Assembly (NCBI GenBank): GCA_008080735.1
Contig: SHMW01000081.1
Coordinates: forward strand, 1 to 19,520
DNA from: Promethearchaeota archaeon
GTDB lineage: Archaea; Asgardarchaeota; Lokiarchaeia; Sigyniarchaeales; SOKP01
DNA: 19,520 nucleotides
Direction: 5' to 3'
The position numbers and the translations under genes are program-made. How positions within the stretch are numbered: the stretch's first letter is position 1; each line of letters begins with the position of its first letter. Shown here one piece after another: positions 11,537 through 17,117 of this stretch. Under the pieces are notes generated by a model. It searched no databases. It was not told where the DNA came from and worked only from the letters and a program-made list of their open reading frames with translations.

Positions 11537-12067
11537 TTATGAAGCGGTCACATTGATTCGTAGAAATAATATGTTTAGAAAAATAGATTTCGATGGAGAT
11601 ATTACCTCAAAAAGTTCCACGATTATCGTTCTATTTCCTGGGATATAAAATGATATATTTAGTTGTTCCGAAATCCATTCCTCATTATGTTCAAGTGTTA
11701 TGTTAGGAGTCGTGAAATTATATTCTGCATTTTCAGCACCATTCGGCCCTAAGGTTGTTTCATTATTACCTTTAGAGATATTCACAGCAAAAGTTGCTTC
11801 TCTTTCCAAATAATTTCCTATTCCCACATAAAAAGAAATATTTTTACCGATGGTTGCGTTAGTGGGGTAATTGCCCATTTCTTTTTCCTCATTAAGTATT
11901 GTAAAAGTAGTAAAGGGCGGTTCTGGATTTAACACATAATAGACTATAAATCCAGAAACTATGAGAATTCCCGCAAGTAAACACACAGTCACCAATTTAT
12001 CAAAATGCTCAAAACTTTCCTTTAACTTCCGCTTATAGGCACTTTCACTATTATCGTGATCACTCAT
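11537..12067 (-). CDS. DUF1616-like membrane-anchored protein
   Basis: One N-terminal TM helix, then 'EPPFTTFTILN...NYPTN...FYVGIGN' beta-rich domain; 8-nt overlap with the upstream gene. Confidence 0.75.
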   Translation of the reverse strand: MSDHDNSESAYKRKLKESFEHFDKLVTVCLLAGILIVSGFIVYYVLNPEPPFTTFTILNEEKEMGNYPTNATIGKNISFYVGIGNYLEREATFAVNISKGNNETTLGPNGAENAEYNFTTPNITLEHNEEWISEQLNISFYIPGNRTIIVELFEVISPSKSIFLNILFLRINVTAS

Positions 12068-13130
12068 TTTTTTCTAAATCCTTAAACCATTCAATTGTTT
12101 TTTTTAATCCCTCTTTCAAAGGAGTTTGAGGCTCCCAATCTAATAATTGCTTTGCCTTTTTAAGATCAGGACATCTGCGTTCTGGATCATCGATCGGAAG
12201 CGGTTTGAATATGATTTCTGAATTGGAACCGGTCAATTCCAAAATAATTTCAGCTAACTCTAAAATTGTATATTCTTTATTATTACCTAAATTGATAACT
12301 TCCCCTAATGCTTCGTCTCTATCGACAATTTTAAAAAACCCCTCGATCTCATCAATTACATAGGTAAAGGAGCGTGTTTGGGATCCATCACCAAACACTG
12401 TAATATCTAAATCGTTTAAAGCTTGGTGGATAAAATTTGGGATCACGCGTCCAAACTCTGCTCCATAACGAATCCTTGGTCCTGACGTATTAAATATTCG
12501 AACGATTTTAGCCCGCATATTATGCTGGAGTTCATATGCTTTTATAAAAGCCTCTCCCGCGCGTTTCGACTCGTCATAACACGAACGGGGACCTACGGGA
12601 TTAACGTTACCAAAATATGTTTCTGGAGTTGGTACGGCTTCCTCTGGGGGATTTCCATATACTTCTGATGTGCTTGTATAGAAAAAGAGTGCATTATGAG
12701 CTTTGGCAATCCCCAACGCATTCATCGTCCCCAAGGTGTTACTTTTTAATATGGGGATCGGATATTGTCGAAATTCGAATGGAGATGCTCGTGAAGCCAT
12801 GTGCATAATAATATCCAATTTCTTAATGTCTCCAATGCATATTCCTTCAGGATGATTACTAAACCCAAAATAAATCGGTTTTGAAATATCATGGTTTATG
12901 AAACGAAAATTAGCAAAATCCCTCAAATGTTCTATATTTTCAAATTTTCCGGAAGCAAAATTATCTAAACATATACAATAGGCTCCCTGTCGTACTAATA
13001 CATCACATACCCAGGAACCAAGAAATCCTGCGCCTCCTGTAACCAATACAGTCTGATTATTAAAAGATATATTATCTTTTTCTAAGCGGTCTAAAATTTC
13101 ACTGATATCTTTTTCTATATCATAATTCAT
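12060..13130 (-). CDS. UDP-glucuronate decarboxylase (UDP-xylose synthase)-type extended SDR
   Basis: TGGAGFLG, ASRASP, TSTSEVYG, GPRSCYDESKR, GDGSQTRSF and DDPERRCPD motifs typical of the UXS subfamily. Confidence 0.88.
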   Translation of the reverse strand: MNYDIEKDISEILDRLEKDNISFNNQTVLVTGGAGFLGSWVCDVLVRQGAYCICLDNFASGKFENIEHLRDFANFRFINHDISKPIYFGFSNHPEGICIGDIKKLDIIMHMASRASPFEFRQYPIPILKSNTLGTMNALGIAKAHNALFFYTSTSEVYGNPPEEAVPTPETYFGNVNPVGPRSCYDESKRAGEAFIKAYELQHNMRAKIVRIFNTSGPRIRYGAEFGRVIPNFIHQALNDLDITVFGDGSQTRSFTYVIDEIEGFFKIVDRDEALGEVINLGNNKEYTILELAEIILELTGSNSEIIFKPLPIDDPERRCPDLKKAKQLLDWEPQTPLKEGLKKTIEWFKDLEKNE

Positions 13131-13318
13131 ATTAGGATGCTCATTGATTTAATTTGATCAATAAAATATTCAATTGTATTTTATATTTTTTAGTTGTGCT
13201 ATGCGTCGGTTTATTATCATCACAATTTAATTAAAATTAGAATTCTATAAAATTAACAATTAATCAATACCTAGTATTAGATACCTCCAAGCATGCCAAG
13301 GATGCAGGTAGTATATCC

Positions 13319-13930
13319 TTATTGAGTTTTTCTTCCGCAATATTGACAGAATTTTTGTTCGATAGGATATAAATTACCACAATTAGGACATTTTTTTAAG
13401 GAATTTTCCAATATCTGTCTACCTAACATTTTAAAAGCTTTTTCTACATTCTCTCCTGTTTTCGCAGATGTTTTTATTAATTCACCTTGGAAGTTATACT
13501 GCTGGAATATTTTTTGCGCTTTCTCCTTTGAGACCTCCCTCTGATCCTCAAGGTCGCATTTTGCTTCTAATAGTAATTTTGTTTTAGGACTGTTTGGGAC
13601 TGAGCTAATAACTTTCATCCAATCATGCAAGTCAAGTAAGGAATCTTTATTAGTGATATCATACAAGATAAGTGCTCCAGACGCTCCAGATACATATGAT
13701 GGAAGTAAGATCCTGAATTTCTTTTCTCCAGCAAAATCCCAAATATTCAATAGTATGTCCGTTTCATCTATTTCGACCTTTTTTGTTTCAAAATCTACGC
13801 CGATTGTAGATAAAAGATCAGAATGGAACTTACCGGTGGCATACCGCCTAATTAAACTTGTTTTCCCGGCGTTTTTCGCTCCAGCAACCACCACCTTAAA
13901 TTTCAGCAATCTTCTAGAATTTTCGGACAT
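13319..13930 (-). CDS. Rab/Ras-like small GTPase with C-terminal Zn ribbon (eukaryotic signature protein)
   Basis: G1 GAKNAGKTS, G2/RabF1 STIGVDF, G3 WDFAGE, YDIT, G4 AKCD and G5 TSAK; tail CPNC...CQYC. Confidence 0.93.
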   Translation of the reverse strand: MSENSRRLLKFKVVVAGAKNAGKTSLIRRYATGKFHSDLLSTIGVDFETKKVEIDETDILLNIWDFAGEKKFRILLPSYVSGASGALILYDITNKDSLLDLHDWMKVISSVPNSPKTKLLLEAKCDLEDQREVSKEKAQKIFQQYNFQGELIKTSAKTGENVEKAFKMLGRQILENSLKKCPNCGNLYPIEQKFCQYCGRKTQ

Positions 13931-14163
13931 ATTGTTTCTAAATATTAATTTATATAATATTATTATTAGCTTTATTGATTAATAATTTTTTTTTGTTTTG
14001 GATGTTAATAAATTCAACTTCTTAAATTTTCAACAAAAAACCTTTAAAATCATTCAAATTAAAAATCAGATTCTGTTAAAATACTTTATTAAAAGGATTC
14101 AATTTAAATAAAAACGCAAATACATAGATCTAATACATTACAAAGGATTATGAAAGCTAATAT

Positions 14164-14487
14164 TTGACAATGGAGCATATTTTGATTTTCGAAGCAATAA
14201 AAGTCGAGGGACAATGTCCTGTTTATAATGTGGGAGACAGAACAATAATAAAGGGTCCAAATATCGATCTTAAGCATTCTGATGCGGTATGTGTTCACGC
14301 TTTATTTTGCCTTGGGCCGTTCTTGATGGCACTTAGAGAAGGTGTCCCACCAGCTCAGCTAGGACTTTCGAAGAAAAAGAATGGAAATGCATATTTTCAC
14401 TGTTTAGATCCCGGAAAACCTTACACTAACGGGGGAACTGTATTATTTAAGGTATCAACTTCTCAGAGAAAAGAACTACCCAAGTAA
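14164..14487 (+). CDS. TIGR04076-like small Cys-containing protein
   Basis: GQCPVYNVGD, CVHAL and CLDPG...GGTVLFKV pattern. The start is either TTG at 14164 or ATG at 14170. Confidence 0.8.
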   Translation: MTMEHILIFEAIKVEGQCPVYNVGDRTIIKGPNIDLKHSDAVCVHALFCLGPFLMALREGVPPAQLGLSKKKNGNAYFHCLDPGKPYTNGGTVLFKVSTSQRKELPK

Positions 14488-14519
14488 ATTTGATATGTAT
14501 AAATTTTAGCATAAAATAA

Positions 14520-14640
14520 GTATAAAATAAGGAAGGAAGTACTTAGGGGTACCTCCTTCCCTTGAACTCCACCGATACTTTGGTGACTTATTCACCTCTT
14601 TATCTGTTTGAGTTCATATCATGAATATTCAAGTTCCCTT
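14520..14640 (-). ncRNA. Candidate structured non-coding RNA (two hairpins plus U-rich tail)
   Basis: Locally GC-richer island. Nested stems 14563-14569/14610-14616, 14574-14577/14601-14604 and 14582-14586/14592-14596; a second stem at 14529-14542/14549-14562; TATA-like box upstream on the minus strand. Confidence 0.5.
14529..14562 (-). terminator. 14-bp hairpin followed by U-rich tract
   Basis: The minus strand reads AGGGAAGGAGGUAC-CCCUAA-GUACUUCCUUCCUU then AUUUUAUACUUAUUUU; lies between convergent genes. Confidence 0.55.
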
Positions 14641-14659
14641 TTAATTGTAATGTAAATAG

Positions 14660-14673
14660 ATTATAAATTTTTG
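14660..14673 (-). promoter_or_regulatory. Putative BRE/TATA box for the candidate ncRNA
   Basis: The minus strand reads CAAAAA-TTTATAAT, about 25 nt upstream of the GGG at 14638-14636. The AT-rich background lowers specificity. Confidence 0.35.
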
Positions 14674-14771
14674 ATGAAAATTGGTTAAATTTTGAAAATA
14701 TTACACCGCAAAAAAAATCAGATTTGATATATTTCACTTATTTTGAATATTTCTGTAAACCGCTTATAAAT

Positions 14772-17117
14772 TCAAGCAGTTTTATCATTTTTATATTTAA
14801 AGCGGCTTATTTTATATATTTCTTGAGCTATCTTTTTTCCTATATTTTCGATCTGCATTAAATCACCGATATCAGCATTAAATATCGCTTGAAGGGTTTT
14901 CATTTTATCCAAAAGACTTCTGGCTCGCAATGTGTTCACTCCAGGTATTCCCGCAATTATATATTCTAATAGATATGTTAAATCAACTGGTGCCTTCTCA
15001 AATCTAAGTTTTACTGGAGCTTTTTCATGAGTTTGCTCTTTTTTTACGAGATGATATAGAAACGTCGCGGTTTCATCAACATCCGTTGTTCTATACATGG
15101 TTATTCCTAAATTCAAAATAATTGAACTAATTGCGCCATAAATCGCATTTGCATTAATATTCGTATTTTTAAAGGGATCTCCCTCTAAAATAAGAATAGC
15201 ACATTCAAAATTATTACTAAGTTCCATCAATTCCTTGAATAATCGCCCATCTTTAATGGAATCAAGGAAATCTTGACCGCTTTTCCGTTCCACTCCCACT
15301 CGCTCTGAAATTACATAATCACTAACTTCTAATTGCTTCAATACCAAATTTATTCCCATAAGCGAAAGCGTTCTCACGACGGGAGACGCAGTTTCTCTAT
15401 TATCGCATATAATTGTGTATTTGTCTGCTCCTTGAATTTTTTCCGTATGATTTAGATTCCTATTCAAGACGTCATCATCTTCCTCATTCTCCTCCTGTTT
15501 CGAAATATAATTCATTAGACTTGTTTGTTCTTCGGATTCTGATGCTTGCTGAAGCTTTTGTATCTTCTTCAGATTCCTGCGCATATTTGATTCTTTAGCT
15601 TTTTCTGCCCAGTAATATCCCTCATCTCGTGTACCTTCTGCCATCAAAATAAATACCTTCCCTTCCTTCTTACGCCCCGTACGCCCTCTTCTCTGGATAG
15701 ACCTTATTGCGCTAGGTACGACATCGTAAAACACCACCAAATCGCATTCCGCGATATCTAACCCTTCCTCTGCGACGCTTGTTCCTATAAGAGTATTATA
15801 AATCCCCTCCTTAAACTCTTCCAGGAGTCCAATTTGTTGCTTTTGAGTCAATCCCTTATCCGAGCCCTTATTTGCCTGACCTACAAACTTATGCGCCTTT
15901 ACTACTGTATCATCTTTAAAATATTTGACGATATTATTGACCGAATCCCGAAAATGGCAAAAGACCAAGATGCGAGAGAGTGGGTTGTTAATAAGTTGTT
16001 CGCGTAATAATTCATCCAGCTTTTCAATTTTGGGATGGACTATTCCTTTCGCTTGGATTTGATTAGTAAGGTTTATAAGTCGCTTAAACTCATTATCCCT
16101 GAATAATTCTTGAAGTGATTTATTTGCCTTATTTCGTTTGATTTTTTCTTGATTTTTATCTAAATAGTCCTTAAGAGCGTTAATCCCTTGTGTTTCAATT
16201 AATTCGCTCATATGAGAAAGACGGATGGCATTGGCTTGAAGTTTTTTTGCATAAAACAGCATATATTTCTCATCATCATTGCGAGCCCTGGAAATTCTTC
16301 CATTAATCGTCTTATTTAGCTTTAGTAAATCTCTTCGGGTCACTTTAGTAACATCATAGGAATTGAGTAGCTCTTGGTTTTTTAAGTGTTTGTAGATATT
16401 TTTGAGTTTGTCCGAGAGTATGTTTTGTATCTCCGTAAATTCTTTTGGGAGCTTGACCTTAATCCATTCATTATCAACATTATGGATATATGGCTTCACA
16501 TCAGCATCATTTTCCGTACGGATTTCAATATGATCGATGAATAAATTTTGCTTAATCTCTTGAATTTTTTCGCTCTCTGAACCTGGGCTCGCGGTCAATC
16601 CTAAGATTTGAGGATTAGTAGAATTCTCCATATATTTTTGGGCGATAAAACAATACGCATAATCGCCTACTGCTCGATGACATTCATCAAAAATAATTAA
16701 GGATACATCTTCCAAAGTATACTGATTGGAAATAATATCGTTTTGAAGAACTTGAGGTGTCATAAACGCGATCTTTAAATCTTGCCAGAGCTGTTTTCTC
16801 TCATCCGGCGATATAGTGCCGGTGATCGGTCGTAGGGAATCGTGGTTTAAAACCGTCAGACTTCGAAACGACTCATAATGTTGGTTCACTAGTGGCTTGG
16901 TGGGTGCGAGAAATATAACTCGTGAATCTGGCACTTCGGTTAGTCTATGAACCGCAAGCATCAGACCGATTATAGTCTTACCTAAGCCAGTTGGGATAAC
17001 CACCAAAGAATTTTGATTTAAACAACTGATAAAAATATTTTCTTGATAGGATCGCCTGAGCACGGTCTCTTCTTGAATAAGCGGATGAGAGATAAACTCT
17101 TGTTTCTCGGATGCCAT
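14772..17117 (-). CDS. hef: Hef (FANCM/XPF-like) SF2 helicase-ERCC4 nuclease
   Basis: Helicase motifs PTGLGKT, DECH, TASPG, EEGLDI and QRRGRTGR; nuclease motifs DNRE, SDY and ERKSxxD; tandem HhH motifs at the C-terminus. Confidence 0.96.
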   Translation of the reverse strand: MASEKQEFISHPLIQEETVLRRSYQENIFISCLNQNSLVVIPTGLGKTIIGLMLAVHRLTEVPDSRVIFLAPTKPLVNQHYESFRSLTVLNHDSLRPITGTISPDERKQLWQDLKIAFMTPQVLQNDIISNQYTLEDVSLIIFDECHRAVGDYAYCFIAQKYMENSTNPQILGLTASPGSESEKIQEIKQNLFIDHIEIRTENDADVKPYIHNVDNEWIKVKLPKEFTEIQNILSDKLKNIYKHLKNQELLNSYDVTKVTRRDLLKLNKTINGRISRARNDDEKYMLFYAKKLQANAIRLSHMSELIETQGINALKDYLDKNQEKIKRNKANKSLQELFRDNEFKRLINLTNQIQAKGIVHPKIEKLDELLREQLINNPLSRILVFCHFRDSVNNIVKYFKDDTVVKAHKFVGQANKGSDKGLTQKQQIGLLEEFKEGIYNTLIGTSVAEEGLDIAECDLVVFYDVVPSAIRSIQRRGRTGRKKEGKVFILMAEGTRDEGYYWAEKAKESNMRRNLKKIQKLQQASESEEQTSLMNYISKQEENEEDDDVLNRNLNHTEKIQGADKYTIICDNRETASPVVRTLSLMGINLVLKQLEVSDYVISERVGVERKSGQDFLDSIKDGRLFKELMELSNNFECAILILEGDPFKNTNINANAIYGAISSIILNLGITMYRTTDVDETATFLYHLVKKEQTHEKAPVKLRFEKAPVDLTYLLEYIIAGIPGVNTLRARSLLDKMKTLQAIFNADIGDLMQIENIGKKIAQEIYKISRFKYKNDKTA

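Follow-up and report, generated by a model that had tools for sequence, protein, structure and literature searches.

The 19,520-nt stretch of DNA from a Lokiarchaeia-type Asgard archaeon analysed here (the window) very probably carries, on the minus strand of the spacer between the hef gene and a Ras-family GTPase gene, a standalone non-coding RNA gene restricted to one lineage. Its transcript, with both ends predicted, would be ~110-125 nt long and, without a match to any described family, would represent a new archaeal small RNA family of a known kind. The unit was more than a chance fold because it was conserved as a whole in related genomes. The presence of an own TATA box in each tandem copy, the promoter retained by a relocated copy in the genome G005, and the T8 run after hef all argued for an autonomous gene. 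The preliminary description of this DNA had considered both a standalone small RNA and a hef mRNA with a structured 3' element. The former was supported by the promoter, the duplicates and the relocated copy, whereas the latter was reduced to a rival reading of low probability.

Predicted promoter and limits of the transcription unit

The element was located between convergent genes. Its upstream neighbor on the minus strand was hef (14772-17117), encoding a protein with DEAD helicase, ERCC4 and HhH domains, while the plus strand contained a TIGR04076-family gene (14164-14487) for a Cys-rich protein of 107 aa without a Pfam match. Further downstream, the minus strand encoded the Ras-family GTPase with a C-terminal zinc ribbon (13319-13930), followed by an NAD-epimerase gene. 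The same order of the hef, Ras-like GTPase and epimerase genes (12060-17117 in the window; loci L161-L190) was observed in nearly all genera of the family.

The minus strand read CAAAAATTTATAAT at 14673-14660, corresponding to a BRE-like A-run and a TATA box (CAAAAA-TTTATAAT) that aligned across the copies without gaps. In all 11 copies, the TATA consensus TTTATAAT was positioned ~45 nt upstream of the first hairpin (hairpin 1), and the spacing was also constant in the second tandem copies and in the relocated G005 copy, so the promoter proposed in the preliminary description was found again in every homologue. Another conserved promoter motif, TTAACCAA, was present 13 nt before the TATA box (14681..14688, minus strand); in most copies the sequence at this position was TTAACC(A/T)(A/T) or differed from it by one or two changes. 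This motif is possibly a transcription-factor site. A regulon search of the own genome with the TTAACCWW-N11-15-YTTATAR layout produced fewer matches than the reversed control. Taken together with TATAAT, TTAACCAA also resembled a sigma-70 -35/-10 pair with a 17-nt spacer, despite the archaeal host.

Transcription was predicted from the TATA spacing to start near G14638, ~26 nt downstream of the TATA center. Starting from this position, the minus strand read GGGAACUUGAAUAUUCA, the first letters of which were GGGAAC. The predicted 5' leader of 22 nt (14617..14638) was AU-rich and poorly conserved, with a sequence that differed between copies. At the opposite end, UAUUUUAUACUUAUUUUAU immediately followed the second hairpin (hairpin 2), and every copy had a T-run at this place. 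The predicted 3' end of the transcript fell within this U-rich tail (14511..14528, minus strand), which contained U4 tracts at 14527-14524 and 14516-14513. The column-conservation profile formed an island from ~14700 to 14521 with a peak at 14600-14561 and returned to background beyond 14520. This island comprised exactly the promoter and the transcript.

A distance of 155 nt separated the element from the stop codon of hef, which is encoded upstream on the same strand, and six of the eight carrier contigs shared this synteny with hef. Such an arrangement might be expected if hef transcripts extended to hairpin 2 and the element served the hef mRNA as a terminator or as a structured part of its 3' UTR, where hairpin 1 would stabilise or regulate the message. 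However, a T8 run on the minus strand (14710..14717), between the hef stop codon (14772) and the TATA box, is likely the hef terminator that sets hef apart from the RNA gene. Runs of T5-T8 were present in the matching interval of most syntenic genomes, although G003 had no run of T5 or longer between hef and the element, which fits the hef reading better. The other observations were difficult to reconcile with it: the TATA box and the upstream motif were conserved at constant spacing, the second tandem copies had their own TATA boxes, the G005 copy was not adjacent to hef, and the hef genes of other sampled genera of the family had no such element. We thus considered a 3' element of hef rather improbable.

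Secondary structure and its conservation

The conserved core of the RNA was hairpin 1 (14563..14616, minus strand), an irregular hairpin with three stems that was delineated by RNAfold and by comparison of the copies. Stem P1 consisted of 7 bp (14616-14610/14569-14563) and was followed by an AA bulge. Stem P2 contained 2+4 bp (14607-14606 and 14604-14601 with 14577-14574 and 14572-14571), and between P2 and P3 there was an AAGA/AAAG internal loop. In P3, GGUGA was paired with UCACC (14596-14592/14586-14582) below the apical loop AUAAG. Hairpin 2 (14529..14562, minus strand) abutted hairpin 1 without a gap and had a 14-bp stem, with a purine-rich 5' arm and a pyrimidine-rich 3' arm, and a 6-nt loop. 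It was by far the strongest terminator-like hairpin within the window, where no other gene possessed one of this type. The box, the sequence from 14638 onwards, the long hairpin, the 14-bp hairpin and the U-rich tail could all be read from the minus strand as in the preliminary description, and RNAfold reproduced the long hairpin with its stems, bulge and loops.

The minus strand had an MFE of -41.1 kcal/mol (RNAfold, z = -4.6), and none of 200 dinucleotide shuffles was as stable. The corresponding values for the plus strand were -35.2 and z = -3.5, and in 10 of the 11 copies the sense strand formed the more stable structure of the two. As previously noticed, A-C mismatches of the plus strand became G-U pairs on the minus strand; there were two such pairs, both in hairpin 2. 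The choice of the minus strand as the functional one was thus in agreement with both the folding energies and the conserved G.U pairs.

Folded singly, all 11 copies produced the same three-stem MFE architecture. Namely, P1 had 6-7 bp followed by an A or AA bulge, P2 had 4-7 bp with one mismatch or bulge, the internal loop was A-rich (AA/AAA in some of the other copies), and P3 could be described as GG-N-G-R / Y-C-N-C-C with an apical loop of 5-6 nt. The 22-nt 3' strand of hairpin 1 (CACCAAAGUAUCGGYGGAGUUC) was nearly invariant, and so were the AAA(G) side of the internal loop and the AA bulge. Hairpin 1 varied in its apical loop and along much of the 5' strand, and the leader was variable as well. 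We anchored the comparison of the stems on the nearly invariant 3' strand and observed compensatory changes in P1 (C:G <-> U:A), P2 (A:U <-> G:C; C:G <-> A:U <-> U:A) and P3 (U:A <-> C:G; A:U <-> G:C; C:G <-> U:A). These double changes in the three stems were found together with many G.U pairs, because of which the minus strand was assigned as the strand of the RNA.

In the model-fitted alignment, 92.9% of the cells were paired, compared to 23-47% when the partners were slid by 1-3 columns. These 11 sequences were closely related, and both sides had changed in only 3 pairs of hairpin 1. The observed values were reached in 15-54 of 500 shuffles, so that the control was exceeded only moderately, as would be expected of close relatives. 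Hairpin 2 had 7 pairs with both sides changed and the pairing kept. Thus, on the question of covariation raised in the preliminary description, the comparison revealed compensatory changes in P1, P2, P3 and hairpin 2 among close relatives, and within this set it lends moderate support to a conserved strand-specific secondary structure. RNAalifold, which used the sequence alignment, preferred an alternative with CACC paired with the 3' GGYG, which may represent a second conformer of the RNA.

Since P1 was an exact inverted repeat (GAACTC...GAGTTC) and the element resembled an insertion into an otherwise short spacer, it could in principle be a DNA-level palindrome acting as a protein-binding or recombination site, or else a chance fold in an AT-rich spacer. 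We gave very little credence to either: the pairing was kept via G.U pairs, which would be meaningless in duplex DNA, the sense strand folded better in almost all copies, the promoter and the U tract were strand-specific, and the element did not belong to a repeat family. The z value of the minus strand argued against a chance fold.

No ORF was common to the copies, and the indels between them were not multiples of three. A small protein or a dual-function RNA would imply a short ORF driven by a Shine-Dalgarno-like GGAGG motif, and GGAGG or GAGGUG was indeed conserved in hairpin 1; moreover, four copies had a common frame (..KSPKYRWSS..), and in the G012a copy an AUG was located 3 nt (GA) after GGAGGC. 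However, there was a stop in frame in G003, the frame was different in G001a, and G004, G005 and L157 had either no start or no ORF of at least 12 codons. Substitutions preserved base pairs and not codons, which together with the indels made a coding function extremely unlikely.

Phylogenetic distribution and history

According to both BLASTN and the covariance model, the own genome contained a single copy. Five of the six other congeneric genomes had one or two copies, the exception being a 61%-complete MAG, and genus g7 had two. Two further distinct copies were identified on metagenome contigs by an exact-pattern scan. A first scan of contigs with a degenerate DNA pattern was too loose and returned chance matches in bacteria only, and a tighter pattern returned the same genus and chance matches only. 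Three covariance models (R1-R3) were run over the family, the order and the phylum sample. Models of hairpin 1 alone detected nothing beyond g1 and g7 in 151 genomes of the order, and nothing more in the 151-genome phylum sample with 29 families; matches of the covariance models in G106, G139 and G137 were at chance level. Thus, across the genome and the Asgard genomes searched, the homologues were confined to two genera and the metagenome contigs.

A degenerate look-alike was observed in G017 from genus g12 (L023:1501-1627), upstream of the GTPase orthologue. Its scores were 42 bits for the full model and 12 bits for hairpin 1 by itself; it had lost P3 but retained UAUCGG, the GAACUCAA start and the terminator hairpin. 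This remnant is possibly a decaying copy.

Tandem duplicates were present in G001 (L017:1329-1453 and 1501-1625) and G012 (L022:1232-1351 and 1501-1621), and each of these copies had its own TATA box, both hairpins and the T-run. The duplications in the two genera were apparently independent. The G001 copies had the same hairpin 2 and tail, and in hairpin 1 they differed at ~10 positions, some of them on the AAAG side of the loop, which was invariant elsewhere (AAAA vs GAUA). The G005 copy had unrelated neighbors and was 185 kb away from the GTPase gene, yet its promoter was retained. A repeat or MITE was not supported, as there was one copy in the own genome and at most two adjacent copies elsewhere.

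The spacer between hef and the GTPase gene was ~110-140 nt long and free of the element in the family's other sampled genera, and a search upstream of the GTPase orthologues of other genera did not detect it even with the filters off. From this distribution, we infer that the RNA gene was either inserted or newly evolved within one small clade. It would have arisen in, or entered, the hef-GTPase spacer in the ancestor of two genera, and its later history would include two tandem duplications and one relocation.

The downstream neighbors of the copies varied between the opposite-strand TIGR04076 gene, the GTPase gene and an unrelated 102-aa ORF. The RNA and GTPase genes were separated by the TIGR04076 gene in the window as well as in G006, G001 and G012, four genomes in all, and in G003 and G004 it was absent from this spot and the RNA was retained. 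Genes of the TIGR04076 family were found at other loci in G009 and G024, and no RNA element was detected beside the TIGR04076 paralogues of G009, G024 and G004. In G003, G004 and G017, the GTPase gene was immediately preceded, on its own strand, by the element or its remnant, and an aptamer-like hairpin set against a terminator recalls bacterial OFF switches. On this basis, one might consider a cis-acting leader (riboswitch or attenuator) of the GTPase gene, in which hairpin 1 would act as the sensor, and the expression platform would consist of hairpin 2 and the U tract. We rejected such a leader as highly unlikely for several reasons. The opposite-strand gene intervened in the four genomes listed above, the G005 copy was far from the GTPase gene, and the GTPase orthologues of other sampled genera were not preceded by the element. 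Additionally, no alternative antiterminator pairing was found by inspection, and there was no Rfam riboswitch match.

Comparison with known RNA families

A search against Rfam 15, which the preliminary description had named as a check, returned no matches at the gathering threshold. Permissive Rfam searches of the window and six homologous loci produced unrelated matches with E of at least 0.19, none of which was common to the homologues, and no tRNA cloverleaf was detected in the window by ARAGORN or Rfam RF00005. Rfam, ARAGORN and the published SECIS criteria all failed to assign the RNA, in line with the earlier failure to match tRNA, C/D box or SECIS patterns.

In Asgard eSECIS-like elements, an upper stem of 7-15 bp has been reported to rest on a non-Watson-Crick quartet, (A/G)UGA_(G/A)A, and to carry an A-rich apical loop of 8-20 nt; these elements belong to selenoprotein genes with an in-frame UGA codon, where they are located in the 3' UTR (PMC11227280). 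In the euryarchaeal SECIS, the two stems are separated by a GAA_A bulge, and the upper one contains three G/C pairs in a row (PMC11227280). Our RNA was similar in that it was a hairpin of stem, purine-rich internal loop, stem and loop in an Asgard genome, downstream of a gene ending in UGA. However, it had neither the AUGA_GA quartet nor the GAA_A bulge, its apical loop was 5-6 nt, and it had its own promoter and was not tied to a selenoprotein gene. An eSECIS-like element was rejected since the bases before P1 were not conserved (AUGA, UUGA, UAGA, GAAA) and the GA paired canonically with UC. Location in a selenoprotein 3' UTR was rejected as well, given that the upstream gene was hef, that the RNA had a promoter and that the G005 copy was away from hef. 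The euryarchaeal type was dismissed because the internal loop was AAGA/AAAG or AA/AAA.

Similar to the K-turn RNAs bound by L7Ae, the element was small, archaeal and had a purine-rich internal loop beside a G-C-rich stem. However, it had no C/D or ACA box, no tandem sheared G.A/A.G pairs and no Rfam snoRNA match. K-turn, box C/D and H/ACA candidates were thus rejected: the boxes were absent, and position 2b, which must be A, was an invariant U. The triplet after P1 varied among the copies (AAG, GAC, UAG, GAA, GAG, AAA).

The invariant 22-nt 3' arm, opposite a 5' arm that changed only to keep the pairing, was reminiscent of animal and plant pre-miRNAs. However, no Piwi/Argonaute gene was found in the carrier genomes tested, and the sole Rfam miRNA match was on the wrong strand with E = 0.73. 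A precursor of an Argonaute guide was rejected on the same grounds, as PF02171 was not found in G000-G006 or G012 while the controls were positive.

Another parallel was with the bacterial and archaeal trans-acting sRNAs of the Hfq/Sm type, which are likewise free-standing intergenic genes with their own promoters and products of ~100-120 nt, where a functional domain is followed by a stable hairpin and a U tail, and which are lineage-restricted and prone to tandem duplication. In contrast to them, our RNA had no conserved single-stranded seed or C-rich loop, its conserved bases were inside an irregular helix, and its complementarity to targets was not above chance.

Proposed mode of action

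In the proposed mechanism, archaeal RNA polymerase would start ~25 nt downstream of the BRE/TATA box, near 14638, and transcription would end beyond 14529, at the U4 tracts. Both termination and protection of the 3' end would be tasks of hairpin 2 and the U tail, which may also form a putative binding site for an Sm-like protein. Although hairpin 2 with its U tract matched the pattern of a bacterial intrinsic terminator exactly, the host was an archaeon, where U-tracts alone suffice as the termination signal and a hairpin is not required (PMC8716108). Moreover, a terminator would leave the conserved hairpin 1 and the promoter unaccounted for. Since hairpins are dispensable for archaeal termination, the conserved and covarying hairpin 2 likely belongs to the mature RNA.

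Hairpin 1 would be the working part of the molecule: its 3' strand, A-rich loop and AA bulge were held almost constant, and its 5' strand would change only to preserve pairing. Provided that the RNA is real, our tentative first choice, which we would still place somewhat below even chances, was that hairpin 1 provides a structured platform for recognition by a protein, either as a component of an RNP or as an sRNA titrating that protein. The second choice, possible and less probable, was that the invariant 3' strand is a masked seed, which would become available for pairing with a target RNA upon opening of the hairpin. The protein platform was favored over the masked seed because there was no conserved accessible seed and the complements were at chance level only.

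Specifically, no conserved single-stranded seed was present in the RNA. RNAduplex against 5,020 ORF starts yielded only long, loopy and uninformative duplexes, and the best match in an ungapped genome scan for complements of the invariant 3' strand was at chance level. The 5' regions of the GTPase genes were AU-rich and had no complementarity to the RNA. A 13-nt identity was noticed between the invariant strand (AAAGUAUCGGUGG) and the sense strand of a gene for an LRR protein (G000:C6:27850-27872). It was rejected as a target since it was a sense-strand identity with an LRR codon run (LPKSIGG; P-K-S-I-G-G) and not a complement; it was probably a chance match, helped by the abundance of LRR repeats.

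A more unusual and quite doubtful scenario was that the RNA contains a self-masked effector strand, with the 22-nt 3' arm freed and the 5' arm serving as a lid, or that it mimics the SD : anti-SD interaction. In the first case, the 22-nt arm, once released by processing or unfolding, would act on another RNA or on the ribosome. In the second, the GGAGG(U/C)G : (U)CACC helix would titrate a component of translation initiation. This MAG contained no SSU rRNA, and that of G005 and G006 was truncated; GGAGG was present at -20..-4 in only ~3% of long ORFs.

Significance

Among known prokaryotes, Asgard archaea are most closely related to eukaryotes. In the literature that we searched, no catalogue of Asgard non-coding RNAs was found. 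The present analysis would add one well-delimited and computationally supported sRNA family, with its promoter, structure and range, that could be a possible seed for Rfam, and the RNA gene would improve the annotation of Asgard MAGs. The narrow range of the family limits its wider significance. If a masked effector strand or an SD mimic turned out to be true, it would be a regulatory principle that, to our knowledge, has not been described for Asgard archaea. For the lineage itself, the locus would represent a young sRNA gene that was inserted in the otherwise fixed hef-GTPase spacer, twice duplicated in tandem and once moved.
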